Origin: Candidatus Enterousia sp.
GTDB taxonomy: Bacteria; Pseudomonadota; Alphaproteobacteria; Rs-D84
Reading direction: 5' to 3'
Assembly (NCBI GenBank): GCA_045630455.1
Contig: JAZQTD010000039.1
Coordinates: 6,498-70,497, forward strand
Length of the DNA: 64,000 nucleotides
Both the position numbers and the translations under genes were made by a program. Numbering within the stretch: the first letter of the stretch is position 1; each line of letters opens with the position of its first letter. Positions 9,888-34,749 of this stretch are shown one piece after another. The notes under the pieces are model-generated. The model did no database searches. It was not told where the DNA came from and was given only the letters and a program-made list of their open reading frames with translations.

Positions 9888-9890
9888 CGC

Positions 9891-19512: not shown

Positions 19513-19636
19513 CTTTGAATATGATTGACGTATTATTTTACATTGTTAATTTCAAAATGCAAGGTTTTCCCGCGGAATATAAACCCGTATATTAAAACTT
19601 TTCATCATGCTAGGATAACTGTATCGGAGACTTCAA

Positions 19637-20086
19637 ATGCCAAAACAAAAAGAATTTCAAACAAACTCTTTTACAATCGCACACTATATTTTGCTGTTTA
19701 TGGTTGTTGTCACATGCGCCAGTGTTGTGGTGTGGCTGATAATGGACCGATATAAAGCCCAGCAAGAATCCAGAACAAATATCACATATATCATAAAAAA
19801 CGACCCATGTGTTGCCCAGACCCGTGATGCAGTATCCCGTATGTGGGCATATAACCAAGAACTGATTCCCACCAGATATAAAACAATGGCAGATACATAT
19901 GCGAATAATGCTGTTATGGGGCGTATCACAGGATACTGCAACGGCATACCGTTTACGTGTCGTGCAGGACAGTTGCGCCGTACTTGTGACCCGTGTGCAA
20001 CTGAGTCTGGGCGCAACATGGCAAAGAAATACCATATTGCCGATATGGTACGCGCAAACTGTGGGTATGAATTGGATAAAAAATAA
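19637..20086 (+). CDS. hypothetical membrane-anchored Cys-containing protein
   Basis: 149-aa ORF with one TM (ILLFMVVVTCASVVVWLI). No family recognised. Confidence 0.45.
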   Translation: MPKQKEFQTNSFTIAHYILLFMVVVTCASVVVWLIMDRYKAQQESRTNITYIIKNDPCVAQTRDAVSRMWAYNQELIPTRYKTMADTYANNAVMGRITGYCNGIPFTCRAGQLRRTCDPCATESGRNMAKKYHIADMVRANCGYELDKK

Positions 20087-20128
20087 TTTGTTTTTTATTA
20101 ATATATGCTATATCATTGCGAACATTGT

Positions 20129-20937: not shown

Positions 20938-20965
20938 ATCCCCCGCCAGACGGCGGGATTTTTAT
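20936..20965. terminator. bidirectional rho-independent terminator at left edge of phage-like cluster
   Basis: aaATCCCCCGCCagacGGCGGGATtttt. Confidence 0.7.
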
Positions 20966-21219
20966 TTGATAACTGCGCTTTTGATAAGGTTCAAATCTTC
21001 CTTGATATCGTCTATTTTTATTTGAATCTGCCCTATTCCTGTTTCCAGCACAGTTGTGCGATTTTCAAGTGCAGTTATACGAACGTCTGCACGTTCAATC
21101 TGTGCCAACGATGAATCTTGACGTGCAACCCAGTAAATTACGCCCGCAATAAAGGCGATTAAAAACCAGCTGTCACGCAAAAAATCCACAATTCCTGTGG
21201 CACTGGGTTGCATTGTCAT
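20962..21219 (-). CDS. phage-cluster small membrane/coiled-coil protein
   Basis: 85 aa with one TM (WFLIAFIAGVIYWV) followed by a coiled coil. Starts 2 nt after the upstream gene. Confidence 0.5.
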   Translation of the reverse strand: MTMQPSATGIVDFLRDSWFLIAFIAGVIYWVARQDSSLAQIERADVRITALENRTTVLETGIGQIQIKIDDIKEDLNLIKSAVIK

Positions 21220-21221
21220 TT

Positions 21222-21416
21222 CTATTTCCCCCGTTCTGTAAAATTTTCAATTTGATGAACTAAGGCTCGCTGGGCCTCTAGCCCACGCAGTTCTGCATCG
21301 GTCGCGTTCGCCCCCAGGACCCGTTCAATCGTTATCTTGCGCAAATGCGCCAGTACACGCACCCCAGACGGGGTGCAAAATGTACGTGCAAAATCGTGTT
21401 CTATGTTTTCAGACAT
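21222..21416 (-). CDS. small phage protein, Bbp19-like pattern
   Basis: Start set at MSENIEH. FCTPSGVRVLAHLRK...LRGLEAQRALVHQIENF resembles the small portal-adjacent phage family (F.t..G..VL..L....EG.R.lv..I). Recognised from memory only. Confidence 0.45.
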   Translation of the reverse strand: MSENIEHDFARTFCTPSGVRVLAHLRKITIERVLGANATDAELRGLEAQRALVHQIENFTERGK

Positions 21417-21420
21417 TTGA

Positions 21421-22650
21421 TTAGACCCCCGCGACACTTTCCAGCGCAACCATCTGCGCAATCGGTGCAATGTATTTTAATTCTGCATCACCGTGCAGGG
21501 TTATTGGCTCTATCTGTCCACGGCGGGATAAAATCTGCAATCCACGTTCACACAGTGGACGAATAAATTCGTGCAACAGACGTCCATAAGTCGCCCCCAA
21601 AATACGCATCATATCAGAATTACGTGCCATTATTTCGGTTGCTGTCATTTCTTTCTCAGACAACAGCCCCAGTCTGTCCGCCAATAATGTGTGACGAATC
21701 CGTTCACGCAGGTCTTTTAATATAATCTGGGATACGTCAAAATTCGCACCAGATGTCAATGGGGTCAAACCCGAGGACCCAACCGCCTTGGGTATTATCG
21801 CCCCTGGGGTCAGGTTAATATTATTCAAATTTATAACACCGTCATCGTCTGCCATCCAGATGCCAGACACTGAAATTGTCGCGTTTTTCAAGACCAGTTC
21901 TACGACCTTGTTTGCGGTTTTAATATCTGGCAATGCACGCAAGACCGGGCTACGACCATACGTTTCACCAGACATCACAGACCAGCGGAAAACTAAATAC
22001 GGATTTGTTTCGAACGTACCCGTTGCCACAATATTATTTTCAATATCACCACCCACATCCAACCAGGCTGTAAATTCAGTACCAACCAAACTCTGTACCA
22101 GTTTTATTGGTGTGTCTGGGCTCTGGTTTAGTGTGTCACGCAAATTTGCCGGCAATGTCCAAGCGGGATATTTCTGGACGGCCTCGGCCAGTGGCATTGA
22201 TGTTGTGTGAAATACTGCGTTTGGTAAAATCGCAATGTCTGACATCGGAATCGCAGTGAAAGAAAATGCAGACGATGCGCCAATCGGATTTTCAGACATA
22301 AACAAACACGCTGTACCCAGTACGACCAAGTCCATATAGCACTGGTGCACGGTGGTGTAAAAATTAGAATCATTCAAATGCGCACGCAGTGCTTGTGTCG
22401 CATATTCTGGGTCTGGGGATAAATCACTTTCGGGCACCAGATTCAGCCACAATGATTCAGGCGGGGTCAGTAATGTATAAAGCGATGCTGCCAGATTATC
22501 CACTGCATCAGACGCAGTCGCATCAAACAGGGTCGCCATATCTTCATCGGTTGATGGTGCAGTATATCGGCGTGCCGCATCCCAGCGGTTTAACCATGGC
22601 GCACGATTATCCAGCGCACGTTTATATAATTGCTCAAGGTTTTGTTGCAT
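21421..22650 (-). CDS. phage portal (head-to-tail connector) protein, T7 gp8-like
   Basis: YKRALDNRAPWLNRWDAARRYTAPS aligns with T7 gp8 YERLKNDRAPYETRAQNCAQYTIPS. GETYGRSPV aligns with GESYGRSYI. At 409 aa it is shorter than T7 gp8 (536 aa). Confidence 0.85.
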   Translation of the reverse strand: MQQNLEQLYKRALDNRAPWLNRWDAARRYTAPSTDEDMATLFDATASDAVDNLAASLYTLLTPPESLWLNLVPESDLSPDPEYATQALRAHLNDSNFYTTVHQCYMDLVVLGTACLFMSENPIGASSAFSFTAIPMSDIAILPNAVFHTTSMPLAEAVQKYPAWTLPANLRDTLNQSPDTPIKLVQSLVGTEFTAWLDVGGDIENNIVATGTFETNPYLVFRWSVMSGETYGRSPVLRALPDIKTANKVVELVLKNATISVSGIWMADDDGVINLNNINLTPGAIIPKAVGSSGLTPLTSGANFDVSQIILKDLRERIRHTLLADRLGLLSEKEMTATEIMARNSDMMRILGATYGRLLHEFIRPLCERGLQILSRRGQIEPITLHGDAELKYIAPIAQMVALESVAGV

Positions 22651-22678
22651 TTATGTTTCCTTTTGGTTTTGTGTTGTT

Positions 22679-23518
22679 CTATATCTTGAAATCTGTATTT
22701 GCAGAAAAGGTTTTTAGGTTGCGACTGATTGGGTGCAGTGCGATTGGCATCTGGGTAATCGCCCCCGCCAATGCATCCAGACCGTCATCGTGCCCCACCC
22801 CGCCAATCGGTGACCACCCCAGCATTTCTGCAACCAATGGTGTTTGCCGGATACGCATATGTGCATACAGGTGACCCGACGTTAACAATGGTTCAATCGC
22901 ATCCAAGATACGGTCTGATTTATTCCGATTGTTGGTGATTTTATTTACGTATATGTTTTGTCCGCTGCGGGCCGCTACATCACGCATAATTTCAGGCAAT
23001 GCGTTTCCCAATCCATTGGTTTCAATCGTTATGCGGCGCATACTGTATCGGTGCATAAAATCAATCACCATTTCGCACTGGGTATTCAGTGGATGTGTCT
23101 CGTTGTCTGATACGTGCATATAAATCACATCGTGGATAAAGACATTGTGGTTTTTATCATCACGATAGATGAGCACACAGACACTGTGGTCTGATTTATG
23201 GCGGCCACTGGACGGATCCCAATAGACAGATGCGCCAGTTATCATGTGTGGTCCCAGACGCGCCGAATGTATATCCAGCATATCTTCGTAAAAATGAATT
23301 TGTCCGGGGTCAAGGCGAATCCGATCGGCCGGCACATAATCCAGCATCATTTGTGATGAAAAGTGGCGTGGTCCGACAATTTGACGCATCTGATTTATCT
23401 TTTCAATCGGGAAAAGTTCCGGCCATGCGGGCGTGCCATCTGGGCTAATTATCGGAATTTTCAATATTTTATAGCCCGATAAAAAAGGCATTGAAAAAGC
23501 ATTTTTTTCATATACCAT
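22679..23518 (-). CDS. terminase large subunit, C-terminal fragment (lid plus RNaseH-like nuclease)
   Basis: SGYKILKIPIISP aligns with T7 gp19 RGYTTIIWPALYP. Nuclease acidic residues are in context: VYWDPSSGRHKSD, ITIETNGLG, HDDGLDALAGAI (T7: HDDRLDALA). The start is ambiguous (Met codons at 23545, 23518 and 23491); the ORF is open to 23620. Confidence 0.85.
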   Translation of the reverse strand: MVYEKNAFSMPFLSGYKILKIPIISPDGTPAWPELFPIEKINQMRQIVGPRHFSSQMMLDYVPADRIRLDPGQIHFYEDMLDIHSARLGPHMITGASVYWDPSSGRHKSDHSVCVLIYRDDKNHNVFIHDVIYMHVSDNETHPLNTQCEMVIDFMHRYSMRRITIETNGLGNALPEIMRDVAARSGQNIYVNKITNNRNKSDRILDAIEPLLTSGHLYAHMRIRQTPLVAEMLGWSPIGGVGHDDGLDALAGAITQMPIALHPISRNLKTFSANTDFKI

Positions 23519-23543
23519 TGGCGTTAAGGAAAAGGATTTTGAC

Positions 23544-25100
23544 ATGGATTTTACCCCTAAGACTTTGCCAACTAATCTGGAAGCAGAACAGGCAGTATTG
23601 GCCGCAGTGTTAATGAACAATCGCGCTTTAGAACGTGTGTCAGAATTCTTGACATCGGAACACTTTTCACACCCCGCCCACCAGGAAATCTATAAACTGG
23701 CGGAACGTCAATTCGCAGCGGGTATCCCATTTGATATCATCACGGCGAAAACATATCTGGAACAGCAAGGCGTTCTGGAATCTGTTGGTGGTGTTGACTA
23801 TTTAACCCAATTATCAGGCGCAGGTGCAACAGTCGTTAATGTTGAACAATATGGTCGCATCGTGCACGAAAACGCACAAAGACGGCAATTAATCAATCTG
23901 GCCCAAGATATTATGGACGGTGCGTTTGTCGAAGATTTGGACAACCCAGTTGAAACCCAGATTCAAGTTGCGGAACAAAAACTGTTCGATTTGGCATCCA
24001 AAGGATCATCCGAACGAGATGTTGTTTCAATTGCAACTGCATTACAGGCCGCCCTGCGAGAGGCTGAAACAGCATACAAAGCCGATGGACAATTGTCTGG
24101 TTTAACAACGGGATTAACCGCACTGGATAAATCAATCAGTGGTTTGCATCATTCCGACCTTATTATTGTCGCAGGTCGACCAGCGATGGGTAAAACGACA
24201 CTTGCGATGAATATTGCATTCAATGCAGCAAATGCAATTCACTATGGCACTGCGAACAAGAACTATAAGGGTGCAGTTGTGTTTTTTAGTCTTGAAATGT
24301 CCCATTCCCAGTTGGCGGCACGTGTTTTGTCGTCCCAATCAAAGGTGCCTGCATCCGCAATGCGTGAAGGTAATTTGACAGACGAAGATATGCTAAAAAT
24401 GACACAGTACGCCGATGCAATTAGCAAAATCCCACTGTGTATTGATGATACACCTGGGATGTCTGTGCCAATGATGCGTACACGTGCAAGACGTTTATCA
24501 CGCAAATATGGTGGAATCGCACTGATTGTTGTTGACTATTTACAGCTTATGACATCCCCTGGGGGCAAGCGCAGTGACAACCGTGTTCAAGAAATTTCTG
24601 AGATTACACGAGGCCTCAAAATGCTGGCCAAGGAATTGGATGTTCCGGTTATTGCCCTGTCACAGTTGTCACGTAGCGTTGAACAGCGTGACGACAAACG
24701 TCCACAATTGGCGGACTTGCGTGAATCTGGGTCTATTGAACAAGACGCCGACATTGTTATGTTCACATATCGTGAAGAATACTATTTGGCGAACCGCAAT
24801 CCGTCTGAACGTATTTCTAACACAACAAATTCTTCGATGGTAGAATCATGGCAAAAGCGCTATGAACAATCCCGTGGCAAAGCAGATATTATCATTGGTA
24901 AAAACCGTCACGGCCGTCCAGAAACTGTGCGCACGGCGTTCTTTGGCGATTACAGCTTGTTCGACAATCTGCCCGATGAATTTGACATACGTGGCGAAAA
25001 TATCACACCACAGCCAACGACCAGTGTACCATTGGATGGATCTGAATTTGCGCCAACACCAATTGACGCGGATGCAATCCCAGACGATATGCCGTTATAA
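23544..25100 (+). CDS. dnaB: replicative DNA helicase DnaB
   Basis: 518 aa. N-terminus LPTNLEAEQAVLAAVLMNN, Walker A GRPAMGKTT, Walker B IVVDYLQLM, and the SQLSR and RESG.IEQDAD motifs. RBS AAGGAAAAGGA. Confidence 0.95.
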   Translation: MDFTPKTLPTNLEAEQAVLAAVLMNNRALERVSEFLTSEHFSHPAHQEIYKLAERQFAAGIPFDIITAKTYLEQQGVLESVGGVDYLTQLSGAGATVVNVEQYGRIVHENAQRRQLINLAQDIMDGAFVEDLDNPVETQIQVAEQKLFDLASKGSSERDVVSIATALQAALREAETAYKADGQLSGLTTGLTALDKSISGLHHSDLIIVAGRPAMGKTTLAMNIAFNAANAIHYGTANKNYKGAVVFFSLEMSHSQLAARVLSSQSKVPASAMREGNLTDEDMLKMTQYADAISKIPLCIDDTPGMSVPMMRTRARRLSRKYGGIALIVVDYLQLMTSPGGKRSDNRVQEISEITRGLKMLAKELDVPVIALSQLSRSVEQRDDKRPQLADLRESGSIEQDADIVMFTYREEYYLANRNPSERISNTTNSSMVESWQKRYEQSRGKADIIIGKNRHGRPETVRTAFFGDYSLFDNLPDEFDIRGENITPQPTTSVPLDGSEFAPTPIDADAIPDDMPL

Positions 25101-25130
25101 GTGATTATTTACTTGCGCTTGCCTTAAAAA

Positions 25131-25158
25131 TTGACTATTATTTTGTCAAGATTATACT
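25131..25158 (+). promoter_or_regulatory. sigma70-like promoter with embedded inverted repeat upstream of the HTH regulator
   Basis: TTGACT-16 nt-TATACT. The inverted repeat TTGAC(n9)GTCAA spans the -35 box and spacer and could be an operator. Confidence 0.45.
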
Positions 25159-25175
25159 TTTTAAGGAGTTTCGTA

Positions 25176-26183
25176 ATGGCCCAAGAAGAAATCATTTTTC
25201 CAAATAATATCAGAAACATCCGCCTGAAAAATGGTATGAAGATGACAGAACTGGCACGCCGGACGGGGTTGTCGCTGTCTGCAGTTTCCAAAATTGAAAA
25301 GGGCGTTCGTCGCTTGAATCAAAAGCAGTTATTAAATATCTGTAATATTTTGGGTTGCAAATTATCCGACATTTTCATCAAAGCTTCAGATGAAGTGGCT
25401 GAACAGTGGCAAACTGAAATCAAACGCCGTTTGAACGATAACGAAGACGGTGGCTTGAAAATTTTCGGCAGTGGGCTGCGCAAAATTCGTCAGCAAACAG
25501 GTAAAACAATCGCACGCGCCGCCAAAGATGCGGGGATGACATTGTCTGTATACCATAAAATCGAAGTAGGACAGCGCGAAATCTATGAAAATGAAATCGA
25601 GCCATTAGCAAAATCGTTCGCGATGACTGTTGAAGGGATGTTCGACAAAATCGCAACTTTATATAAAAGTGGCGATTTGAACAAACATATTAACAAGGTT
25701 AAAGAACGCGTAAAATCTGTTCTGGAACCCGGCAATCCATTATCCAGCATTGATATGGCTGGCGGTTTGTATGGCGCAAAACTGTATGAAAGCGCGCGTA
25801 AAAAATTGGTTCCTGTATTTGGTATGCCATCGGGTAAATCAATCGCCTTCAGAAAATCTGATAAAACTATGATTGTTGCCCCAATGTCTTTGGAAGGCCG
25901 CAGTGGTATTTATGCAGTTATGCCAAATTCTAAACGCCTGGGTGGATTTATCCCAGAAAAATCATATGTTTTCGTAGATGTTGACGCCCCTGTTGCGGTG
26001 GGTGACTTGGCAGTGTGCATTGACACAGATTTCAATACACTGGATTCAGAAACAACTGTGAATGCACAAATTGCTATAGTGCGCCAGGATTCCAAGAGCA
26101 AAATCTATGGTCAAGTATCAAGCCCAGAAGAAAAAATTAACGCGCAAACAATGCACAAAGTTATTATGATTGTGATGGAATAA
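25176..26183 (+). CDS. double XRE-type HTH regulator with CI/LexA (S24)-like C-terminal domain
   Basis: RBS AAGGAG. Two HTH_3-like units (IRNIRLKNGMKMTELARRTGLSLSAVSKIEKG; LRKIRQQTGKTIARAAKDAGMTLSVYHKIEVG). The C-terminus follows the S24 pattern (LVPVFGMPSG...YAVMPNSKRL..FIPEKSYVFVD...VGDLAV). Confidence 0.65.
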   Translation: MAQEEIIFPNNIRNIRLKNGMKMTELARRTGLSLSAVSKIEKGVRRLNQKQLLNICNILGCKLSDIFIKASDEVAEQWQTEIKRRLNDNEDGGLKIFGSGLRKIRQQTGKTIARAAKDAGMTLSVYHKIEVGQREIYENEIEPLAKSFAMTVEGMFDKIATLYKSGDLNKHINKVKERVKSVLEPGNPLSSIDMAGGLYGAKLYESARKKLVPVFGMPSGKSIAFRKSDKTMIVAPMSLEGRSGIYAVMPNSKRLGGFIPEKSYVFVDVDAPVAVGDLAVCIDTDFNTLDSETTVNAQIAIVRQDSKSKIYGQVSSPEEKINAQTMHKVIMIVME

Positions 26184-26219
26184 GACCATCGCAATCATGC
26201 CCGGAGAGAGAGGTTCAAT

Positions 26220-26876
26220 ATGAAAGCACGTATCACAGCAATCGCCCAAAAGTTGCTTAACCTGTATCGTCAAGAACACGTTATTATTGGTGGTTGGGCC
26301 ACAGTCAATCCTGTGTTTGTTAACGAAGCAGATGATAATGTTATCAACGAGCTTCGCGAAATGCCGACTGGCAAAATGCTGGTACAACATATCGAGAATC
26401 TGCGCAGCGGAAAAACACCAATGGATTCTATTGAACCAGAACTGGTTCCATACGGCGGTATGATGGCACAGTCAGATTTGGTCAATGCAGTACTAAGCCG
26501 TCAAGAATTAACCGAACTGCAATCTGTGCTAAATACGTTTACCCCAGATCAAAATGGATTGGATGCAATAGAAAAACTGGGCGCAGTTCGTCGATTTGGC
26601 GACGAATGGCAAAATGCGATACATGATGCACTGAAATCACACCCAGATTTACAACCTAAATGGGACATCGTCACCAAAACATATCGTGCATATCAATTGT
26701 GGGATACAGCAAACCAAACTATTAACACACCACTGGACGAACGCGCACGCGCAGAAATCCAAGCAGAAATGCCAGAATATGAAACATATCTGCCGATGTT
26801 TGGGGATGCTGGCAATGAATTACTGGCACGATTGCGCACATTTATCAGCTCAATAAAGACCGAAGACAATGCCTAG
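26220..26876 (+). CDS. hypothetical protein (last gene of the cassette)
   Basis: 218-aa ORF with a good RBS (GGAGAGAGAGG). No family recognised. Its TAG stop shares the palindrome CTAG with the stop of the terminase N-fragment on the other strand. Confidence 0.5.
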   Translation: MKARITAIAQKLLNLYRQEHVIIGGWATVNPVFVNEADDNVINELREMPTGKMLVQHIENLRSGKTPMDSIEPELVPYGGMMAQSDLVNAVLSRQELTELQSVLNTFTPDQNGLDAIEKLGAVRRFGDEWQNAIHDALKSHPDLQPKWDIVTKTYRAYQLWDTANQTINTPLDERARAEIQAEMPEYETYLPMFGDAGNELLARLRTFISSIKTEDNA

Positions 26877-27478
26877 TCTTTATCACTGGTGCGATATATC
26901 GTATCCATTGTGTGCGGTGTACCGATATAAATCATTGCGCCAGCAGGCGATAAAATAAAATCTAATTCACGCAATCTTTCGCGCAGATTTTCACGCTTTT
27001 GTGGGGTGTTTGATGTATTTGGCACTTCTACATCATCACAGATTATTAAATCTGCACGCATACCGGTTATATTTCCGTAAATACCCTGACATATTACAGA
27101 TGGTTCACGTATGCCAACAGGACGATTTACTGTGATATGCCCCGATGCCCATTCACGCCGTGATGCAGGTATCAAATCTCCGCACCACGGATGATTTTCC
27201 AAGATATGTCGAATATGTGATACCATACGCGATGCCAGACCGCTGTGCGCCGACAAAATCAGGATTCGTATCGACGGATACAAATACAATGTGCAGGCTG
27301 CGAAAATTCCGACAACTGTTGATTTACCAGAGTGCCGAAACGCCATCAGTAGTCCACGATGCATATCATCGTTCAAAACATCGACCAAAAAATTCATAAT
27401 TTTCCGATGATGTGATGGCGTAGTCTGACCCAGCACCCTATTCCACGCATCCATAAAATTACAATAATCCGTAATCAT
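26873..27478 (-). CDS. terminase large subunit, N-terminal ATPase fragment
   Basis: Colinear with T7 gp19 residues ~30-235. Walker A LLMAFRHSGKST (T7 ILQAFRGIGKSF), ILILSAH (ILIVSAS), Walker B RADLIICDDVEVPN (RADIIIADDVEIPS), and IYIGTPHTMDTIY (IYLGTPQTEMTLY). It ends 5 codons later at a stop. Start candidates are 27523, 27478 and 27454. Confidence 0.85.
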   Translation of the reverse strand: MITDYCNFMDAWNRVLGQTTPSHHRKIMNFLVDVLNDDMHRGLLMAFRHSGKSTVVGIFAACTLYLYPSIRILILSAHSGLASRMVSHIRHILENHPWCGDLIPASRREWASGHITVNRPVGIREPSVICQGIYGNITGMRADLIICDDVEVPNTSNTPQKRENLRERLRELDFILSPAGAMIYIGTPHTMDTIYRTSDKD

Positions 27479-28007
27479 CGCATTCGGCGTCTGTGGTCGT
27501 ATCCGTAATGTATCCATAGTCATTTATCAAATTCGGCAACGCGTTATCCAGTACCATTATCAGATTTTTATACAATCCCAATACGCCACCACCTGTTAAT
27601 TTGTCTTGGATTAAACTGTTTGTGTATTCCAAGAAACTTATTACATTCGTATGCGTGTTGCGCCACGCTTCGATATCGACATCGGGCGCATGCAGGTCTT
27701 TTAAGGCTTCGATTAAAAAGTTAAAGTCTGCGTTCAAGTGTTCTGGATCTATTTTTGCAGTTGGCTGATAGTCCACAACACGTGACAGCGCAACCATTCG
27801 ATAAATATCAATCCGCGTATCTGCAGCTGGCGCATTATTAAATACAATTCGCCCACCATCAAAAGACGGATTTTCAACAACTGAATATTCATCGGGGCTT
27901 AAAACAACCTCATTAAACGCAACATGAACATCAGCCGCCTGAAAAAAAGGAAATGCAAATTCAAATTCGGTTGCTTCGCCGTCTGCAATATAAGATATTT
28001 TATGCAT
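27459..28007 (-). CDS. tail-fibre protein, N-terminal (tail-attachment) domain only, T7 gp17-like
   Basis: Start at MHKISYIADG with RBS GGGGGA. Y.ADGEATEFEFAFPF...VHVAF...YSV...IVFNNAP...IDIYR...RVVDY...LNADFNFL follows the T7 gp17 N-domain pattern. Only 182 aa against 553 aa in T7. Confidence 0.65.
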   Translation of the reverse strand: MHKISYIADGEATEFEFAFPFFQAADVHVAFNEVVLSPDEYSVVENPSFDGGRIVFNNAPAADTRIDIYRMVALSRVVDYQPTAKIDPEHLNADFNFLIEALKDLHAPDVDIEAWRNTHTNVISFLEYTNSLIQDKLTGGGVLGLYKNLIMVLDNALPNLINDYGYITDTTTDAECDDYGLL

Positions 28008-28023
28008 ATCGTTCCCCCTGTGC

Positions 28024-28371
28024 TTATCCAACCAGATCATCAAATCGACTAAGTATTGTTTTTATCAGATTTGGTTTTTTAGCCTTGGTTGATTTCAATT
28101 TTTGCAAATTAGCATTGCGCTTTTCTGTGTATGGTTTTTCTGTTTCTGACTTTAGTCGCGCCAGAACCGCCCCCTGGGTCAGACCACGCGCAGATACGCC
28201 AGATGCACCATATTTTGCACGTTGACTGGCCAAGGCTTTTTTAACCAGATTTGTTTTTTCAGCTTCGTCCGATGCCATTTGTTTCAAGATTTCTTGACGG
28301 GTGGATTTTGCTTGTTTTTTTTCATCTTGGTAATCCAAGATTTCACTAACATCTGATACCAATTGTCCCAT
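28024..28371 (-). CDS. hypothetical Lys-rich phage-cluster protein
   Basis: 115-aa ORF in the position occupied by internal virion proteins in T7-like genomes. No family recognised. Confidence 0.4.
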   Translation of the reverse strand: MGQLVSDVSEILDYQDEKKQAKSTRQEILKQMASDEAEKTNLVKKALASQRAKYGASGVSARGLTQGAVLARLKSETEKPYTEKRNANLQKLKSTKAKKPNLIKTILSRFDDLVG

Positions 28372-28403
28372 AATTTTTTCCTTTGGTTTATTAAGTTGAT
28401 AAA

Positions 28404-30119
28404 TTAAACACTGTATCTGCCGGATACATTGACTGACAAGACTGTGATTGGTTGTGGTTCATTGCCGTGGATTATCCAGTATGGTTCTGTACACGTTTTT
28501 GTCGTGCCCAAAACATTTACAGATACATCACCTGTAAAGCCGATGTGTTCATCTGCATAAATTTCATTCGGCATGCTAACGCGTGCGCCATTTATAGATA
28601 CAGACTTGGTATTTAACAGGCGTAGTGATATCTTGCGAATACGCAGGGCTGTCACGTTATGACCCGATGCACGAAACGGCAAAGATGCAGCACGAAGCGC
28701 AAAGTTATATTTGCCAGCATCGTCCAATGCATCATCTGCAAAGCATTCCAGATTGTATGTGCCGTCACGCAGTGTCACGACATATGTCGAACCGTCAACA
28801 ACCGCCACAGAAATAAAAGAACCGTATGTTTTATACCGCCCCCACGCAGATATTCCCAATGCGCTGTTCTGGTTCAAAACTGCCATATCGCCATCTGCGG
28901 TCACAACGAACAACTGGGACGTTGCATCGTTATACGACATATCAATTGGCGATGTCATTATATGCTTTGCAAATGCGCAAAGGTCTGTGGCGTTATAGTT
29001 TTGCCCCAAATCGTCCAACGACAATTCACGAATATCATGCAATGTCTTGGACACGAACACAGTCGCACCTTCTATCTTTTGCGGTGCCAGATATCGTGTG
29101 GCACACGAACCAACCGATGTATGCTGCTTAACATCAACAGATGACGGGGTCAGTGGTTTACTGGAAATTGCCCATTCGCCATCAGACGTTAGAATTTGCA
29201 GGTTATCGCCGCTGACCACGGTACAAATTTGCTGGCGCTGTTGTGATAAAAGTGTCAAGAAAATCGCCTCGTCATCCAGTCCGGTGCCAACATCAAAGTT
29301 TTTATGTTGCCCCACTTTGGACATCCAAATGCCGGCGGGATATGAACGCGAACCACCAAAGACCAGTCTGTCTTGATGAAATGTGATACTGCATGGCCAA
29401 CCACGCTGGGTGCTAAATGCAGCCTCGTACCAATTAGACACAGAGGTGCTGGGCAAACTGTATGTGCCGTTTACGTATGCGATAACTTCTGTGGAACTGA
29501 TGTATTCATCAATTATCCACTGTTTATCCAAAAGCAAGAATCGCGCACGAACATATTCAGGTGTCCAGAAATCTGAACTGGTTGTAAACTTGGCATAGTT
29601 ATTGCCACGATCACTGGTAGATACTGTGATTTTAATATCAGATGTATCTTCGAACCGCATAAACGGTATGTACATAGACATATCTGCGTCATTTATCGCA
29701 AAGATAAAGTCCGTCAATTCAAACCCAGTGGATGTCTTGCGCAAGATTTGTGGCTGGTAATCTGGGTGCACAAATATCATCGTATCAAAACGCTGGGCGT
29801 ATTGCAGATTCTGTAAATCATCTTGCCCCCATGGGACTAGCAAATCCGCAACACGCGTATCCCCAGAATATATCTGGACATGGCCGGCACTTAGCACCAG
29901 AATATAGTTTTCGTTTTCTCCCACAGAAAAAGCGGCCAGACGTGAGTTATCACGCAAGGTCGTGATATGCTTTAGTCCACGTCTGCGCGTTAATCCACCA
30001 CTGGGCAGCACATCCATATTTTCCAGATGTGATAAACCGTTTATATCATCACGTGCATAGAATTCAGGTGCGACCTCGCCATGGGCAAACGAATTTTGTG
30101 TATAAATAAAATTTGCCAT
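28404..30119 (-). CDS. tail tubular protein B (nozzle), T7 gp12-like
   Basis: GEVAPEFYARDDINGLSHLENMDVLPSGGLTRRRG aligns with T7 gp12 GGISQQPDILRYPDQGSRQVNGWSSETEGLQKRPP. FHQDRLVFGGS...SKVGQHKNF aligns with FFRNRLGFLSG...SRTAKYFNF. 571 aa. Confidence 0.75.
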   Translation of the reverse strand: MANFIYTQNSFAHGEVAPEFYARDDINGLSHLENMDVLPSGGLTRRRGLKHITTLRDNSRLAAFSVGENENYILVLSAGHVQIYSGDTRVADLLVPWGQDDLQNLQYAQRFDTMIFVHPDYQPQILRKTSTGFELTDFIFAINDADMSMYIPFMRFEDTSDIKITVSTSDRGNNYAKFTTSSDFWTPEYVRARFLLLDKQWIIDEYISSTEVIAYVNGTYSLPSTSVSNWYEAAFSTQRGWPCSITFHQDRLVFGGSRSYPAGIWMSKVGQHKNFDVGTGLDDEAIFLTLLSQQRQQICTVVSGDNLQILTSDGEWAISSKPLTPSSVDVKQHTSVGSCATRYLAPQKIEGATVFVSKTLHDIRELSLDDLGQNYNATDLCAFAKHIMTSPIDMSYNDATSQLFVVTADGDMAVLNQNSALGISAWGRYKTYGSFISVAVVDGSTYVVTLRDGTYNLECFADDALDDAGKYNFALRAASLPFRASGHNVTALRIRKISLRLLNTKSVSINGARVSMPNEIYADEHIGFTGDVSVNVLGTTKTCTEPYWIIHGNEPQPITVLSVNVSGRYSV

Positions 30120-30133
30120 TGTTATCCCCCCAA

Positions 30134-30664
30134 TTAAAAACGTGTATCTATTAATGAAAATTTATCTATCTGGGCGGTGGGGCTGGTGGTGCTGTCGATA
30201 AATTTAGCAGATTGTAATTCTGATTCATATAATGCTGTCAGCATTCTGAATACAGTCTGGTCGCCAGATAATGGTATACAAAATTCCATTGCTAACTTGG
30301 TCGCCACCAGTGACACAAAATAACTGGGGTATTTATCAACGTCAATACGGACACACGCAGTTATTGTTATCTTGTCAAATGGTGCAATAATTTTATTTCC
30401 GACAATGTCGCCGTTTGATTTTAATACACGCAAAACATTGTTCGGGATTACAAAGTTCCCGTCTGAATCAGGCACAAGATCTAATTGACGAATTGCGAAA
30501 CACCACGGATGCGATGCAATCAGCGCATCTGTTATTGGATCAAACAGTGTTCGTGCCAACTGGGCTGCGGCGGCATCATCACTGAGTGATTGAATTGGTG
30601 CTTCGCCCAGTTTCAATAACGCCATTGAACATAAGTCTATTTTTGTAAGCATATTTGCCCCCAT
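30134..30664 (-). CDS. tail tubular protein A (adaptor), T7 gp11-like
   Basis: IDLCSMALLKLGEAPIQSLSDDAAAAQLARTLF...HPWCFA aligns with T7 gp11 [31 protein letters not shown]...RGWTFN. 176 aa. Confidence 0.75.
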   Translation of the reverse strand: MGANMLTKIDLCSMALLKLGEAPIQSLSDDAAAAQLARTLFDPITDALIASHPWCFAIRQLDLVPDSDGNFVIPNNVLRVLKSNGDIVGNKIIAPFDKITITACVRIDVDKYPSYFVSLVATKLAMEFCIPLSGDQTVFRMLTALYESELQSAKFIDSTTSPTAQIDKFSLIDTRF

Positions 30665-30720
30665 TAAATTCGATAAAAATTATCGGTGACGCAAATATGC
30701 GCCACCGTTTTATAAAGCCC

Positions 30721-30954
30721 CTAGGCCAATGCACCAGTTGTGACATTGCTGGCGGTGATGTTAATCTTTTTGATTGTTGTGTTATCAGATGCGTTGATAA
30801 TTACAACGTCACCAATATTCATCAATGTCTTAACATCGTTAAAGTATCCAGTTGCAGAAATAGTCGCAACTGTTTCAGAACTGGATGCATAGTGCCACAA
30901 TGTGAACCCGTTTGCATACGCAATAACCGACAGATTTTTATTTTGAAATGCCAT
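30721..30954 (-). CDS. hypothetical small phage-cluster protein
   Basis: 77-aa ORF between the capsid and adaptor genes. No family recognised. Confidence 0.4.
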   Translation of the reverse strand: MAFQNKNLSVIAYANGFTLWHYASSSETVATISATGYFNDVKTLMNIGDVVIINASDNTTIKKINITASNVTTGALA

Positions 30955-30998
30955 AAGATTTATCCTTTGGTTAAAAAAATTATTTGAACACGTGATAT

Positions 30999-31826
30999 TT
31001 AAGCAGCCTTGGCATCACTGCATTTAACGCGAACAATACCATCGTTGTCGATTAAGACTGCACCTTGGGACATACTGTTGCTGATAAAGTGCGCTGCGCG
31101 TTCACCGTGCCAAGAAATATCTGTTTTGACTTCCTGGCCACAGGCGTGCCCAATGCTGGATGCGTGATAGATAAAGCAGTCGCGATTAGATTCACTAAAT
31201 GGCAAACCGTTATGCAATACCCACGTGATACCCAACCATTTTTTTGCTTCGAAACCGTTTAACAATGGTGTCGCATCGCCAACATAGTCTGCAGATACAA
31301 ATTCATCCATTGCCAACAGTTCGTTCCACTGGTGTACGCCAATCACAGCAAAACGACGACCATCATCTGGAACATCGTTTGTATTCAGAACTTCGACCGC
31401 AGATAAAATCAAATCTTTGGTTAAACCGGTCGTATAATCACCAACAGACAATGTTGATGCATTCATTGCATCGATAATTAATTCGTCTGTTTTGCGACCC
31501 AATGCGTATGCACCCGCAGATGCAACAACACGGCGTTCATCAATATTGACTTTTAATTCATCCAATGCATCAACCCAGTCACCTGCATAATAATCCATCA
31601 ACAAGCATTCCACAGGTTCGTGATTCAAATTCATCACTGGTACAATACCGTGACGTGATTTTGTGCTGGCAGTGCCACGACCAACTTTTTGGAATGTCGT
31701 AGATGCACCAACAACCCCAGATTTACTGCGAACAGTTGAACGCAGTTTTGTACCCATCTGTTGATAGGCTAAATGAACATCGGCTTCGAATTGTTTTACG
31801 AAAACCTGATCAATTGAAATGGACAT
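30999..31826 (-). CDS. major capsid protein, T7 gp10-like
   Basis: Start MSISIDQ with RBS AAGGAAAAA. VFVKQFEADVHLAYQQ...VRSKSG...FQKVGRG...DELKVNIDERRVVASAGAYALGRKTDELI parallels T7 gp10 LFLKVFGGEVLTAF...VRSISSGKSAQFPVLGRT...YDVRSEYTSQLGESLAMAADGAVL. Confidence 0.85.
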   Translation of the reverse strand: MSISIDQVFVKQFEADVHLAYQQMGTKLRSTVRSKSGVVGASTTFQKVGRGTASTKSRHGIVPVMNLNHEPVECLLMDYYAGDWVDALDELKVNIDERRVVASAGAYALGRKTDELIIDAMNASTLSVGDYTTGLTKDLILSAVEVLNTNDVPDDGRRFAVIGVHQWNELLAMDEFVSADYVGDATPLLNGFEAKKWLGITWVLHNGLPFSESNRDCFIYHASSIGHACGQEVKTDISWHGERAAHFISNSMSQGAVLIDNDGIVRVKCSDAKAA

Positions 31827-31948
31827 ATTTTTTTCCTTTGTTTGGTTAAATAAAAAAAGCGCAACGCGCGACAAATTTTGTAAAACGGTTATGCAAAATG
31901 CGCCGTGATTACAAAATGAATGCGGGGTCTGGGGGACTTGTCCGCAAT

Positions 31949-32020
31949 AAAAAATTCAGTCAGACTGATTAGTCATCTGACTGAAATTTTCAAAATAAAA
32001 ACCCGAACAAACGTTCGGGT
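31949..32020 (-). terminator. two tandem rho-independent terminators downstream of the AKP-rich gene
   Basis: On the minus strand: ACCCGAACgtttGTTCGGGTttttatttt (32020-31991), then TCAGTCAGAtgactaatcagTCTGACTGAatttttt (31984-31949). Confidence 0.6.
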
Positions 32021-32042
32021 AAATTAATAATACGAATTTATA

Positions 32043-32495
32043 TTATTTCTTTTTTGCGCATTTTTTTGCACATGCTTTTTTTGCAACTGGTTTTGCAGCT
32101 ACTTTTTTAACAGCTACTTTTTTTGCAGGTGCTTTTTTAGCAACTGGCTTTTTAACCGCTACTTTTTTTGCAACTGGTTTTTTTGCAGCTGGTTTCGCAG
32201 CAACTTTTTTTGCAGGTGCTTTTTTTGCAACTGGTTTTTTAACTGCTACTTTTTTAGCAACTGGTTTTGCAGCTGGTTTTGCAGCTACTTTTTTTGCAGG
32301 TGCTTTTTTTGCAACTGGTTTTTTAACTGCTACTTTTTTAGCAACTGGTTTTGCAGCTGGTTTAGCAGCTGGTTTAGCAGCTACTTTTTTTGCAGGTGCT
32401 TTTTTTGCAGCAGGCTTTTTAGCCGCTACTTTTTTAGCAACTGGTTTTGCAGCTGGTTTCGCAGCTACTTTCTTTTTGAACAGGCGGAATACCAT
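32043..32495 (-). CDS. Ala/Lys/Pro-rich histone H1-like basic repeat protein
   Basis: 150 aa made almost entirely of [28 protein letters not shown]-type units. RBS GAAGGAGAG. It has its own downstream terminators. Confidence 0.7.
32060..32470. repeat. imperfect in-frame tandem repeat, ~84-nt (28-codon) unit, ~4.5 copies
   Basis: Visible periodicity of ...tttttttgcaggtgctttttttgcaactggttttttaactgctacttttttagcaactggttttgcagctgg.... Boundaries are approximate. Confidence 0.8.
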
Positions 32496-32604
32496 TTTTC
32501 TCTCCTTCTCTTCTATTTTTTAGATAGAACAAAATTCGTTTTGTTCTTACTTGTTATTTTATCTGAATATCAAAAAATAGTAAAGAAGAAAGTGACATTT
32601 TTTC

Positions 32605-33261
32605 TTATGAATATAATTTTTTAAATCCATTTTCTATTTTGCGAATGTATTCTGTATCGCCATCACGCCAATATTTTGGATCACGCATCATACGACGCAA
32701 ATCTGAATCAGTTAAATTTTTTATTTCATTTTTATCTGTTTCAACGGTTGGTTCCATCGATTGCATCATTCGATATACGCCTTGGATTCCTTGGGGTGTA
32801 GAGCATAATTCATCAAACGCCTCGGCGGGTAAATATTTAGTTCCGAACGCTTCGATTGCACGCAATGCATCGTTCATTTTTTCTGTGCCACCAAAAAAGT
32901 TTTTTAATTCACCGATTGCATTTTTTTCATTTTGTGTTTCATATAATTCACTTATCACAGGTGCTAAAAATTCATTCGCGATTGCATAAATTTTTTCAAC
33001 TTGGTTTGTTGTTAATCCAATTTCATGAAATTTATTTTTTATATTTTCATCATCAAATAATTCATTTGTTGGATATTGATCAGCCGATTCGGGCACACCA
33101 ATTGCACGATTTAATCGCGTGCGCACATTTTCGTCACTGTCACTTGTTGGCACAGTTATCATTGTTCCAATCTTTCTTTCCAGTTCCGAATAAGATTTCA
33201 TCAATGCATCTGTATTCAATGTGCCGTCCGCGTTTAAAAATTTTTCTGGAACTTTATCCAT
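32605..33261 (-). CDS. capsid assembly scaffolding protein, T7 gp9-like
   Basis: The N-terminus PEKFLNADGTLNTDALMKSYSELERKIG is typical of podophage scaffolds. The C-terminus LRRMMRDPKYWRDGDTEYIRKIENGF aligns with T7 gp9 MIKAMSDPRYRTDANYRRQVEQKV. Confidence 0.75.
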   Translation of the reverse strand: MDKVPEKFLNADGTLNTDALMKSYSELERKIGTMITVPTSDSDENVRTRLNRAIGVPESADQYPTNELFDDENIKNKFHEIGLTTNQVEKIYAIANEFLAPVISELYETQNEKNAIGELKNFFGGTEKMNDALRAIEAFGTKYLPAEAFDELCSTPQGIQGVYRMMQSMEPTVETDKNEIKNLTDSDLRRMMRDPKYWRDGDTEYIRKIENGFKKLYS

Positions 33262-33262
33262 T

Positions 33263-33463
33263 TTATTTATCCTTTGGTTCGTTTGATTTTCTTAGAAAGT
33301 AAATTCCACCAAGTGTAAAAATACTTTGCAATGTTATAAAAATATCTGTGTCACCGACCAGATATGCTGTGATAGCAGATATAATACCAACACCTGATAT
33401 AATGTATGTTCGATACCCAGACAGAAACCCACCTTTGACAAACTTGTTCATTGTTATTTCCAC
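33263..33463 (-). CDS. putative holin (two-TM small protein)
   Basis: 66 aa with two hydrophobic helices and a charged C-terminus (RKSNEPKDK). It directly follows the lysin gene. Confidence 0.45.
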   Translation of the reverse strand: MEITMNKFVKGGFLSGYRTYIISGVGIISAITAYLVGDTDIFITLQSIFTLGGIYFLRKSNEPKDK

Positions 33464-33892
33464 CTACAAATAAAATAATAATTCATCAACATCTAAAATA
33501 TAGCCACGTGCACGTGCCCAATCTGGTAAAACACTGGCGCGATGAAAATTGGTTGCGCCACGACACATATCCGGCAAACTACCCATCAGCATCCGCCCCG
33601 CAACACGCAGGCACATTTGAAAACCACGACTGGTCGGGGGGACTGATAACATATCGTGACGCGCCGATGTTTCGCGTAAAGATTCAAACATATCGGTATC
33701 CGATATTATTTGTGCGACATTTTTACCGGTGGCACGTGATGCATTATCAATCATGGATACCAGTGCCTCGACCGCGGATAGTGAAGATGCAGATGTTTCT
33801 GCATAAACAACACGCGCAATTTGATATGATAACTTTCTGGACGCGTCTGGATTTTTTATCAGTCGTAAATTCATTTCTGAAAATCCCCCCAT
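33464..33892 (-). CDS. SleB/Hydrolase_2-type cell-wall hydrolase (endolysin-like)
   Basis: IARVVYAETSASS...AVEALVSMIDNA and the C-terminal ATNFHR...LPDWA match the cell-wall hydrolase SleB family pattern. The start may be Met7 at 33874. Confidence 0.7.
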   Translation of the reverse strand: MGGFSEMNLRLIKNPDASRKLSYQIARVVYAETSASSLSAVEALVSMIDNASRATGKNVAQIISDTDMFESLRETSARHDMLSVPPTSRGFQMCLRVAGRMLMGSLPDMCRGATNFHRASVLPDWARARGYILDVDELLFYL

Positions 33893-34062
33893 TGTATTTT
33901 ATGACAAATAAAAAACCGCACAAAAATGTGCGGCTTAAAAAATAGACAAAAAAAATCCCCAACCGATGTTGTGGATATAATCTCTGTCTTTGATATATTG
34001 TATGGTATCACATTTTCAGATAAAAGTCAAGAACTTTTTTTCAAACCCGCGAAAAACCGCCA

Positions 34063-34749
34063 TTACAGCATTGTAATCTCGTCACCATAGACCAGCAAAT
34101 ACCGCGTATCACGGCGCAATATTAACGCACCGTTTTCATTGATTCCGATTAGTTCAGCGGGTGTGCCTTGGTATAATACATCTTTGTTCAAATGCTCAAC
34201 CAACTGCATCCAGCGGGTACGTACAGCCGAGAAATCTGTTCTGCGCCATTTATCCAGATTGCGCATCACCCCCCCCAACAATTCCGTCGCAGACATCCCA
34301 GAAATATAATTATCAAGTTTAGTTGTTTTATATTCGCGCACCGTCGGATTCGTCTTGATGTTTATGCCAATACCAACAATGACATAGGGACCTGCATATT
34401 CTATTAATATTCCACTGACTTTTTTGCCATCAATTAAAATATCGTTTGGCCATTTAATTGTCGGCTCTATTCCATAAGAAATCAGAGTTTCTGCAACCGC
34501 AACCGCAACCGTATACGCCAAGCGACCATCACGTACATCACAATCATAAATAAAACTGACATATAAGTTACCGTGGTGTGAAACCCATTTACGACGATGA
34601 CGACCGCGTCCCGCACTTTGCGCCAGTGCAACAATCGCCACGCGATTTGCCCCACGCCCCGCCGCAATCAATTCGTGTGCAGCATCTTGGGTACTGGGGA
34701 TTTTATCAAAAGAATAAACCTTATATCCGGCCAAGTTTATATACCCCAT
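34063..34749 (-). CDS. birA: biotin--[acetyl-CoA-carboxylase] ligase (no N-terminal HTH)
   Basis: GRGRHRRKW motif, KWPNDI, and 228 aa. Confidence 0.9.
   Translation of the reverse strand: MGYINLAGYKVYSFDKIPSTQDAAHELIAAGRGANRVAIVALAQSAGRGRHRRKWVSHHGNLYVSFIYDCDVRDGRLAYTVAVAVAETLISYGIEPTIKWPNDILIDGKKVSGILIEYAGPYVIVGIGINIKTNPTVREYKTTKLDNYISGMSATELLGGVMRNLDKWRRTDFSAVRTRWMQLVEHLNKDVLYQGTPAELIGINENGALILRRDTRYLLVYGDEITML

Follow-up and report, generated by a model that had tools for sequence, protein, structure and literature searches.

The DNA analysed here is a 64,000-nucleotide stretch of Candidatus Enterousia sp. (GCA_045630455.1, contig JAZQTD010000039.1, positions 6,498-70,497, forward strand), hereafter the window, and all coordinates are counted from its first letter. 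At 20962-33892 it carries a cluster of phage-derived genes, read from the minus strand save for a plus-strand cassette at 23544-26876. The cluster is very probably a domesticated particle-forming module. Its gene content and distribution make it probable that the module is of the viriform or gene transfer agent (GTA) kind, descended from a T7-type podovirus, fixed in the chromosome and inherited vertically across Candidatus Enterousia and the order Rs-D84; that it actually transfers DNA between cells is a tentative reading.

Head, tail and packaging genes of phage origin stand here in a cellular chromosome, flanked by the housekeeping genes acpS and birA, and they show the vertical inheritance and purifying selection of GTAs and other viriforms. 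A GTA is the most economical function for the cluster, because an active-looking packaging enzyme without a specificity subunit, a lysis set, host-integrated regulation and clade-wide retention come together in it. An earlier reading of the letters alone (the sequence-only reading) had also proposed a GTA-like system between acpS and birA. Profile annotation of the window bears out both flanks, the T7-like assignments are supported, the genes other than that of the fibre are not decaying and no further phage modules were found in the window or the relatives' 20 kb loci, and the proposal is supported.

Retention and selection across Rs-D84

When each GTDB species was represented by one genome, at least 333 species proved to encode the tail nozzle protein, and the named carriers listed are all Candidatus Enterousia or uncultured gut Alphaproteobacteria of the order Rs-D84; exact-sequence look-ups with the portal and nozzle proteins of the window itself returned no recorded match. 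For comparison, 80 loci were fetched from other species-level genomes and one was added from a 648 kb contig, with 63-81 loci reaching any given gene. As far as each contig extends, every cluster gene except the fibre gene is complete and the gene order is unchanged, including birA and the dnaB cassette inside the terminase, and the nozzle stays within 565-573 residues. The Rs-D84 genomes are small (0.75-1.0 Mb), have a coding density of about 90% and no pseudogene accumulation, lack pathways for respiration or biosynthesis, and their bearers are predicted to need partner cells (PMC12306168); phage genes go unmentioned in that study.

The ratio of non-synonymous to synonymous substitution rates (dN/dS; Nei-Gojobori method, NG86, pairs with dS of 0.1-1.2) is 0.06 for the portal, 0.075 for the capsid, 0.086 for the nozzle (gp12), 0.11 and 0.17 for the N- and C-terminal pieces of the large terminase (TerL-N and TerL-C), 0.17 for gp11, 0.21 for the scaffold and 0.35 for the lysin, next to 0.05 for dnaB and 0.15 for birA; dS is near saturation, which makes these values approximate, but the contrast with neutrality is still large. 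The mean pairwise protein distance is 0.15 for the capsid and 0.17 for DnaB. Pairwise distances of the capsid, the portal and TerL-C follow those of DnaB with Spearman coefficients of 0.66-0.75 (0.43-0.75 as the overall range), compared with 0.63 for BirA, and a correlation at least as good as that of BirA is what vertical co-divergence predicts. On these alignments the cluster is under purifying selection, comparable to that on housekeeping genes. The maintenance, as opposed to decay, that the sequence-only reading had argued for is thus seen across the 80 loci, the fibre stub being the sole eroding gene.

An ordinary defective prophage remnant that persists by chance is extremely improbable against this background. 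Such a remnant would fit the missing integrase, replication, small terminase and ejectosome genes, the interrupted terminase and the label of provirus that IMG/VR pipelines give the cluster. The intactness and synteny of the fetched loci, the spread of the nozzle gene, a dN/dS of 0.06-0.35, a capsid as conserved as DnaB, co-divergence with host genes and retention in genomes under extreme reduction all speak against it, and the marks of a decaying remnant (frameshifts or stops, patchy presence, dN/dS near 1) are not seen.

Profile scans of the cluster, the 64 kb window and the relatives' 20 kb loci found no homologue of an integrase, a DNA polymerase, an RNA polymerase, a small terminase or gp14-gp16, and no genes for autonomous replication, integration or excision. 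The sequence-only reading had listed these modules as missing, and its list needs one amendment: polymerases and the like are indeed absent, but a helicase is present inside the locus, as the host's own dnaB (NF006606), and this equivalog is the only helicase in a window without a phage RNA polymerase and replication module. Between gp12 and the fibre gene, a 115-residue open reading frame (ORF) stands alone, with no ejectosome genes gp14-gp16.

These absences also bear on the idea of a mobile element: a satellite dependent on a helper, or a mini-prophage, that enters one and the same site again and again in many species. The compact size (10-13 kb), a repressor-like helix-turn-helix (HTH) gene nearby and the occurrence of related clusters in different alphaproteobacterial orders would suit such an element. 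However, no integrase, excisionase, primase or attachment-site (att)-like repeats were found in the cluster or window, the essential dnaB gene lies inside the cluster, divergence follows host genes, and at the boundaries, which adjoin housekeeping genes, the promoter and terminator signals are conserved. The integrase, primase, att sites and helper of phage-inducible chromosomal islands (PICI) or their capsid-forming kind (cf-PICI) are not seen, and the cluster encodes its own tail. We regard a mobile element as very unlikely.

Head, tail and lysis genes

By its profile and structure matches, the cluster encodes all that is required for an HK97-fold head assembled on a scaffold and fitted with a portal, for a short tail of gp11 and gp12 and for a packaging ATPase-nuclease, together with a lysis set. 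The T7 structural module is represented by counterparts of gp8, gp9, gp10, gp11, gp12, gp17 and gp19, with gp17 present by its N-terminal domain only. Each gene named in the sequence-only reading lies where it was placed, as an uninterrupted minus-strand ORF, and searches by hidden Markov model, by PDB sequence or by fold agree with the T7-like assignments. The starts needed revision: longest-ORF coordinates give way to later starts for the capsid (31826), TerL-C (23545), the Bbp19-like protein (21416) and, probably, the lysin (33874).

Starting from the birA side, all of the following genes are on the minus strand. The SleB/Hydrolase_2-like endolysin (33464-33892, likely start 33874) matches phrog_938 (expect value, E = 3e-9) and, under the Pfam cut-off, PF07486 (E = 9e-4). 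It is followed by a holin-like protein of 66 residues (33263-33463), for which Pfam and PHROG profile scans gave no family match, the call being made from two predicted transmembrane segments; the ORF is kept in the 62-64 loci that reach that position, with a dN/dS of 0.17. The gp9-like scaffolding protein (32605-33261) matches PF05396 with 29.5 bits against a cut-off of 27.1, and also phrog_3742. Inserted between the scaffold and capsid genes is an Ala-Lys-Pro repeat protein (32043-32495) resembling histone H1 and Hc2 (PF07382, 44.6 bits; NF038053). A Lys/Ala/Pro/Val-rich ORF with a varying number of repeats holds this position in nearly all of the 60+ loci; it is absent from the two phage-like relatives used for comparison below, Pelagibacter phage Hodr and the faecal sequence L085.

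The major capsid protein (30999-31826) belongs to the T7-like group of the HK97 fold (PF19821, 244 bits; phrog_3437, E = 3e-72; PDB 9eg4, E = 4e-25), and the 77-residue protein encoded after it (30721-30954; phrog_18004, E = 5e-12) is 51% identical to an ORF of L085 and occurs in related elements too. The tail adaptor, or tail tubular protein A (gp11-like, 30134-30664), matches PF17212 ('Tube', 33.5 bits) and phrog_394 (E = 3e-30). The tail nozzle, or tail tubular protein B (gp12-like, 28404-30119), matches phrog_376 (E = 4e-86) and, as a profile, the PDB chain 8ck1 'Tail Nozzle' (E = 3e-43); with its AlphaFold model (predicted local distance difference test score, pLDDT, of 64), Foldseek retrieves the nozzles of Carin-1, LME-1, PhiM1 and T7 gp12 (E = 1e-23 to 1e-9). 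At 571 residues it is short compared with the 790-830 residues found in phages. The 115-residue charged protein that follows (28024-28371) has no Pfam, PHROG or NCBIfam family match, and is a homologue of the 146-residue ORF found after gp12 in a sister cluster of Acetobacteraceae, described below (30% identity, E = 7e-5); comparison with the protein that follows the nozzle in Hodr, and with a small ORF of L085, detected no similarity.

The tail-fibre gene (27459-28043) is reduced to the N-terminal, tail-attachment domain. It matches PHROG tail-fibre families (E = 1e-9) and, slightly under the cut-off, PF03906 (22.9 bits); it aligns to residues 8-114 of the 780-residue Roseomonas fibre, and the receptor-binding part is missing. 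Even this stub is cleanly deleted in 10 loci (L014, L016, L017, L029, L038, L040, L049, L058, L064 and L077) and internally deleted in frame in two more, L053 and L060, the 66-residue remnant of L060 being made up of 7 residues from the N terminus and ~58 from the C terminus. Beyond the terminase, the gp8-like portal protein (21421-22650; PF12236, 285 bits) matches the portals of LME-1 and T7 among solved structures, with E = 9e-18 for PDB 9efk and E = 1.5e-10 for T7 gp8 (6r21); it has 409 residues against 473-511 in relatives, about 100 residues having gone from its C terminus. The Bbp19-like small phage protein (21222-21416; PF25181, 41 bits) has homologues directly after the portal gene in Hodr and L085. 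The last gene (20962-21219), conserved in 65 loci with a dN/dS of 0.11, encodes 85 residues that include a transmembrane segment and a coiled coil; the protein has weak matches to phrog_1193 ('hemolysin') and phrog_736 and is possibly a lysis accessory.

These reductions lend weight to an alternative, unlikely though it is, in which the particle or shell is functional and its selected role is something other than DNA transfer between cells: a device by which these bacteria, presumed to be obligate symbionts, interact with partner or host cells, a killing particle, or a compartment that condenses or stores DNA with the Hc2-like protein. The fibre is cut to its tail-attachment domain and repeatedly lost, an ejectosome is missing, the portal is short of 100 residues at its C terminus, the head module has a histone-like gene set into it in essentially every locus, and Rs-D84 bacteria are predicted to be partner-dependent (PMC12306168). 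Purifying selection on the ATPase and nuclease residues of the terminase, in contrast, points to DNA packaging, and the lysis cassette is retained; the Hc2-like gene, with a promoter and a terminator of its own, may be an unrelated nucleoid gene.

The split terminase and the dnaB cassette

The sequence-only reading had seen that the terminase gene is split, but overlooked the dnaB cassette lodged in the split, and the break is not a frameshift. The N-terminal ATPase piece, TerL-N (216 residues, 26873-27523, minus strand), aligns to T7 gp19 structures (4bij/8dgc, residues 46-212, E = 8e-22 to about 1e-22) and has an intact Walker A motif (AFRHSGKS), Walker B motif with the catalytic glutamate (DLIICDDVE) and C-motif (GTPHT). 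The C-terminal piece, TerL-C (288 residues, 22679-23545, minus strand), is an RNase H-like nuclease by PF22530 (33.6 bits) and PF17289. Its acidic residues D110, E175 and D253/D254/D257 are invariant, and the motifs YWDPS, IETNG and HDDGLDA are kept in 15 divergent sequences. TerL-C has no sequence match in the PDB, singly or as a profile, and its identity is drawn from Pfam, PHROG and the invariant acidic residues; PHROG terminase families match both halves.

The two halves, at 216 and 288 residues, together have the length of intact relatives (472-510 residues), whose first 200-215 residues match TerL-N. Placed on the Roseomonas homologue, the pieces part between residues 203 and 207, directly after the ATPase C-motif, from which it follows that the split cost no terminase sequence. 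A split intein is ruled out, given that TerL-N ends 4 residues past the ATPase match and TerL-C has only ~20 extra residues. On this evidence the large terminase is two separately translated polypeptides with intact catalytic motifs.

The cassette between the halves (23544-26876, plus strand, 3.3 kb) has three genes. The replicative helicase DnaB (23544-25100) scores 604 bits against the NF006606 equivalog model, whose cut-off is 540, and fails the cut-off of the phage_DnaB model; it is therefore the cell's own dnaB. The second gene (25176-26183) encodes a regulator of 335 residues with a double HTH_3 (PF01381, E = 2e-19) and a beta-rich C-terminal domain; its dN/dS is 0.07, and an alignment of 75 sequences shows no conserved catalytic serine in the C-terminal domain. 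A by-eye likeness of this domain to the S24 fold was rejected, as it has no Pfam match, no conserved serine and no alignment to the Roseomonas S24 repressor. The third gene (26220-26876) encodes an all-helical, clade-restricted orphan of 218 residues (AlphaFold pLDDT 74) with 1133 homologues, among which the 120 listed have no Pfam match. Foldseek searches of the PDB and BFVD with the orphan gave no match better than E = 0.7, and the Sf6 small terminase, at rank 5 with E = 4, was set aside as noise.

Both junctions of the cassette are as tight as they can be. The start codons of dnaB and TerL-C overlap head-to-head (CATG, 23543-23546), the stop codons of the orphan and TerL-N overlap tail-to-tail (CTAG, 26873-26876), and these overlaps are kept in nearly all loci, the exception being L083, with a 279-bp spacer on the dnaB side. 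TerL-C has its own conserved ATG and Shine-Dalgarno sequence, and its initiator methionine is kept in L083 without the overlap with dnaB. Over the first 20 codons of TerL-C, third-position variability is halved, as expected if the promoter and ribosome-binding site of dnaB lie inside them. In a more divergent lineage (L144, IMGVR_UViG_2820136564_000001, 4731-10749), with a DnaB 56% identical, the terminase is likewise split around dnaB, and an 834-residue protein without a Pfam match takes the place of the HTH regulator and the orphan; gp11 is cut to 124 residues there and no fibre gene is present. Since the split persists in L144 with different companion genes, the split is old and the island between the halves has been remodelled.

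An insertion so exact and frame-neutral could suggest that an intact terminase gene is restored by programmed excision of the dnaB cassette in terminally differentiating producer cells, after the manner of the skin element in sigK and the nifD element; producer cells near lysis could spare dnaB. Yet the cassette and its surroundings contain no recombinase gene, and neither direct nor inverted repeats mark the junctions, which tells against an inversion of the cassette as well. TerL-C, moreover, keeps its own ATG and Shine-Dalgarno sequence even where it does not overlap dnaB, and the split persists in L144 although the cassette content differs, all of which makes programmed excision hard to credit.

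Regulation, proposed mechanism and relatives

The regulatory anatomy of the cluster is read from conserved sequence, and its functional interpretation is ours. Downstream of birA lies a near-consensus sigma-70 promoter (34002-34030, minus strand; TTGACT, 17 nt, extended -10 TGaTACCAT), conserved in 64/64 loci as TTGAC[TA] and TGnTAnnnT with an unvarying 17 nt between them. It is followed by a leader with tandem intrinsic terminators T1 and T2 (33907-33976, minus strand) and no ORF between; exactly two terminator hairpins are present in 59/64 loci, their stems covary, and RNAfold gives a z-score of -5.5. T1/T2 begin ~25 nt past the promoter and the ribosome-binding site of the lysin lies ~25 nt beyond them, which leaves no room for another promoter, so the lysis and structural genes would be reached by terminator read-through. 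The leader is either an antitermination-controlled entry to the operon or the source of a small RNA of ~60 nt. The same promoter-then-terminator layout is found at lambda PR'-tR', where Q acts. Antitermination is also reported for the Caulobacter GTA (bioRxiv 10.1101/2023.11.12.565669), and the combination of activation and antitermination reported for it matches the promoter-plus-terminators leader.

Two further non-coding regions are conserved inside the cluster. The near-invariant intergenic region before the Hc2-like gene (32496-32604, minus strand; alignment of 63 loci) contains a promoter-like CTTTACTA-N17-ATAAAATA, a ribosome-binding site and an inverted repeat AGAACAAA-N3-6-TTTGTTCT, which may be an operator or a 5' stem-loop. 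Nucleotide conservation in this region exceeds that of the surrounding coding sequence. The capsid gene has a structured leader of ~170 nt (31827-32000, minus strand) with at least three hairpins (TCAGTCAGA...TCTGACTGA; GCGGACAAGTC...GACCCCGC; GGCGCA...TGCATAACC) and an invariant GCATAACC; double, compensatory changes occur in 9/13 predicted pairs. It matches no Rfam family, its motifs, considered as a possible regulon, each occur once in the window, and it could be an element for RNA processing, stability or antitermination. Terminator-like hairpins follow the Hc2-like gene (32020-32001, minus strand) and the 77-residue protein gene (30707-30684, minus strand), the latter at a position matching that of T-phi after gene 10 in T7, and a bidirectional terminator (20941-20958) follows the last gene.

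Candidate regulators are encoded on the other side of the promoter. The small HTH protein (82 residues, 35239-35487, minus strand; PF13443, E = 6e-5), two genes upstream of the cluster, is 55% identical to the HTH of the S24 repressor of Roseomonas marmotae (BLASTP, E = 5e-28), lacks the S24 domain and is a candidate regulator. The 139-residue protein p168 (34721-35140, minus strand), with a C-terminal winged helix of OmpR/PhoB type (weak PF00486 match), is encoded upstream of birA in all loci that extend there, has a dN/dS of 0.24 and is a possible regulator of the cluster. Because the cassette junctions have no intergenic space, transcription of TerL-C and the portal must start inside or beyond dnaB, antisense to it; read-through of the late operon is a speculative source.

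From these elements we propose the following course of events. The promoter downstream of birA would fire into the tandem terminators, and the operon would be expressed only once termination is overcome, by the logic of lambda Q and of GafYZ at the Caulobacter GTA. Procapsids would then assemble in a subpopulation, and the two-piece terminase would cut any available DNA and package it by headful, unspecifically, since there is no recognisable small subunit to confer site specificity. With no space for a promoter or terminator at the cassette junctions, late transcription would probably run antisense through dnaB and the HTH regulator to TerL-C and the portal, and would couple particle production to a shut-down of replication. 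The lysin, the holin and the 85-residue membrane protein would release the particles. Delivery would rely on other, host-encoded receptor-binding or uptake functions, given that gp14-16 are missing and the fibre is a dispensable stub; RcGTA relies on competence proteins for delivery.

Several points weigh against the GTA interpretation. Delivery is its weakest link: scans of the cluster, of the window and of the loci of relatives recognised neither receptor-binding nor ejection proteins, any more than a small terminase, and the fibre stub has been lost at least 5 times independently, which is odd for a device that needs to adsorb to recipients. A terminase split inside its ATPase domain might fail to translocate DNA, and we know of no tested precedent for a split in that domain after the C-motif. 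A head at T = 7 could hold ~35 kb, more than the 13 kb of the cluster, which might therefore lack the GTA hallmark of a head that cannot contain its own genes. The Rs-D84 sequences all come from metagenome assemblies of uncultured organisms; particle formation, packaging and transfer are read from genes, antitermination and antisense coupling from sequence geometry, and the dN/dS values are approximate, as said above.

RcGTA is derived from an HK97-like siphovirus and has a long tail, T = 3 oblate heads with ~4 kb of DNA and a recognisable small terminase. Agents of this type, in Rhodobacter capsulatus and Caulobacter (CcGTA), are likewise chromosomal head-tail-terminase clusters without replication or integration genes, vertically inherited and under purifying selection across a large clade, with lysis genes retained as in Enterousia. 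The Enterousia cluster, known here from its genes, differs in being of T7 type (gp8-12, gp17 N-domain, gp19), in its two-piece terminase around dnaB and in lacking a recognisable small terminase. PBSX-type defective phages and tailocins are also domesticated phage structural genes released by lysis, as proposed here, but PBSX is myovirus-like, and tailocins have no capsid, portal or terminase, all of which, with a scaffold, are present in Enterousia. Closer in shape is FpGTA, a GTA-like element of the gut bacterium Faecalibacterium with podovirus-like morphology, a compact operon of ~10 kb and support from packaged-DNA read data (PMC12946183). Its host belongs to the Firmicutes, whereas the Enterousia element is alphaproteobacterial, T7-type and order-wide, a separation made by description, not by sequence. 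The sequence-only reading knew of no T7-like GTA; the T7 origin holds, but with FpGTA already published as a short-tailed, podovirus-like candidate, the Enterousia cluster is not the first of that shape.

Among T7-like phages, the portal, scaffold, capsid, gp11, gp12, fibre N-domain and gp19-type terminase of T7, Hodr, Legionella LME-1 and Carin-1 are homologous to those of the cluster, and the order scaffold, capsid, small ORF, gp11, gp12 is colinear. Unlike these phages, Enterousia has a shortened portal, gp11, gp12 and fibre, is interleaved with the Hc2-like gene and the dnaB cassette, which are host genes, and has its portal block moved from the scaffold gene to the far end of the cluster. 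Compared with the phages and with the Acetobacteraceae, the nozzle is 50-350 residues shorter and the receptor-binding part of the fibre is wholly lost. The nearest cultured phage is Pelagibacter phage Hodr (OQ414635; capsid 46% identical). L085 (MT838907.1, 5084 bp, GC-rich, from a human faecal sample from Mexico, deposited as 'Bacteriophage sp.'; capsid 61% identical) could be a free phage or a piece of another bacterial cluster from a virus-like-particle preparation. Both have the order portal, Bbp19-like gene, scaffold, capsid, small ORF, gp11, gp12. After gp12, Hodr continues with ORFs of 159, 783 and 1247 residues that are ejectosome-like by size and position. Its terminase belongs to a different family, and Hodr is therefore a guide to the head-tail module only. 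The sequence-only reading explained the adjacency of terminase and portal by a T7-type genome that was circularised and partly deleted; that scenario is not needed, as the order is already native in the nearest phage relatives.

Related provirus calls of 12-13 kb and uniform content in IMG/VR (L153-L186), recovered by capsid alignment, lead to a sister cluster in Acetobacteraceae. It runs from three small ORFs through portal, scaffold, capsid, gp11, a 626-residue nozzle and the 146-residue ORF to a fibre or tailspike of 760-780 residues, an ORF of ~100 residues, an intact terminase and small ORFs, after which the lysin follows in Roseomonas marmotae. More than 3000 sequences are homologous to this nozzle, at a constant length of 626 residues, and the named cultured hosts are Roseomonas, Teichococcus, Belnapia, Neoroseomonas, Roseicella, Craurococcus, Humitalea, Elioraea and Siccirubricoccus. 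In the loci examined from Roseomonas marmotae (L214, 3938-18354), Humitalea (L215) and Elioraea (L216), no integrase, replication or ejectosome genes were found. The left flank in Roseomonas marmotae and Elioraea consists of class-I lysyl-tRNA synthetase and mprF-like genes and then a divergent Peptidase_S24 repressor, and the right flank of EamA, pyrD and a HAD hydrolase; Humitalea shares the repressor and the right flank with them, and its genes further left are different.

Identity between this cluster and the window is 43% for the portal, 37% for the scaffold, 60% for the capsid, 33% for gp11, 32% for gp12, 30% for the post-gp12 ORF, 35% for the fibre N-domain, 36-46% for the terminase and 30% for the lysin of Roseomonas. 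The Acetobacteraceae terminase is intact (472-499 residues), whereas that of Enterousia is split; the fibre or tailspike is full length, with a pectate-lyase-like domain, as opposed to a stub; and the repressor keeps the S24 autocleavage domain that the small HTH protein lacks. The portal gene leads, an Hc2-like gene and a dnaB cassette are absent, and the hosts are cultured bacteria with large genomes. Its ORFs are uninterrupted and constant in length, with NG86 dN/dS values of 0.26-0.52 that are probably inflated by GC-rich codon bias. The Rs-D84 and Acetobacteraceae clusters may go back to one domestication or to two. We found no published description of the cluster in Rs-D84, Enterousia or Acetobacteraceae in a search that did not extend to Begmatov et al. 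2023 (Microbiology 92 Suppl 1: S50).

Taken to its furthest, the comparison would define a second, hitherto unrecognised alphaproteobacterial GTA family, of T7-type podovirus origin and so ancient as to be fixed both in cultured Acetobacteraceae and in Rs-D84. In Rs-D84 this family would have a minimal particle, a two-polypeptide terminase and a late transcript running antisense through the only dnaB and a repressor gene, tying commitment to particles and lysis to replication arrest. As a whole this scheme is doubtful. To our knowledge, few independent phage domestications into GTAs are known, and the literature searched held no GTA of T7 lineage; we believe that the T7-type origin, the two-piece large terminase and the placement of an essential replication gene inside a packaging gene are unprecedented. 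A 10 kb phage structural set is held here under housekeeping-level selection in ~0.9 Mb genomes shorn of most biosynthetic pathways, and retention in genomes so reduced suggests that the particles do something important for these abundant uncultured gut bacteria. A natural two-piece large terminase would inform the mechanics of packaging motors, the interleaving with dnaB suggests a new coupling of an altruistic lysis programme to replication, and the sister cluster in cultured Roseomonas and its kin makes the question testable at the bench.

Outside the cluster the window carries housekeeping genes: aminoacyl-tRNA synthetases, tgt, queA, era, dcd, rpsD, corA, a parC/gyrA-like gene and four tRNAs. 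At the right-hand boundary, recG instead of acpS adjoins the cluster in other Enterousia loci, which points to a lineage-specific rearrangement. About 450 bp upstream of acpS, between corA and tRNA-Pro (19600-20100), several overlapping ORFs of 110-150 residues occupy both strands; one was scanned, and no family match was obtained. At 41500-42459 (plus strand), 8 kb from the cluster, lies a gene for a T2SSE-family secretion or pilus ATPase (PF00437), which may bear on DNA uptake by recipients through a pilus or competence system.

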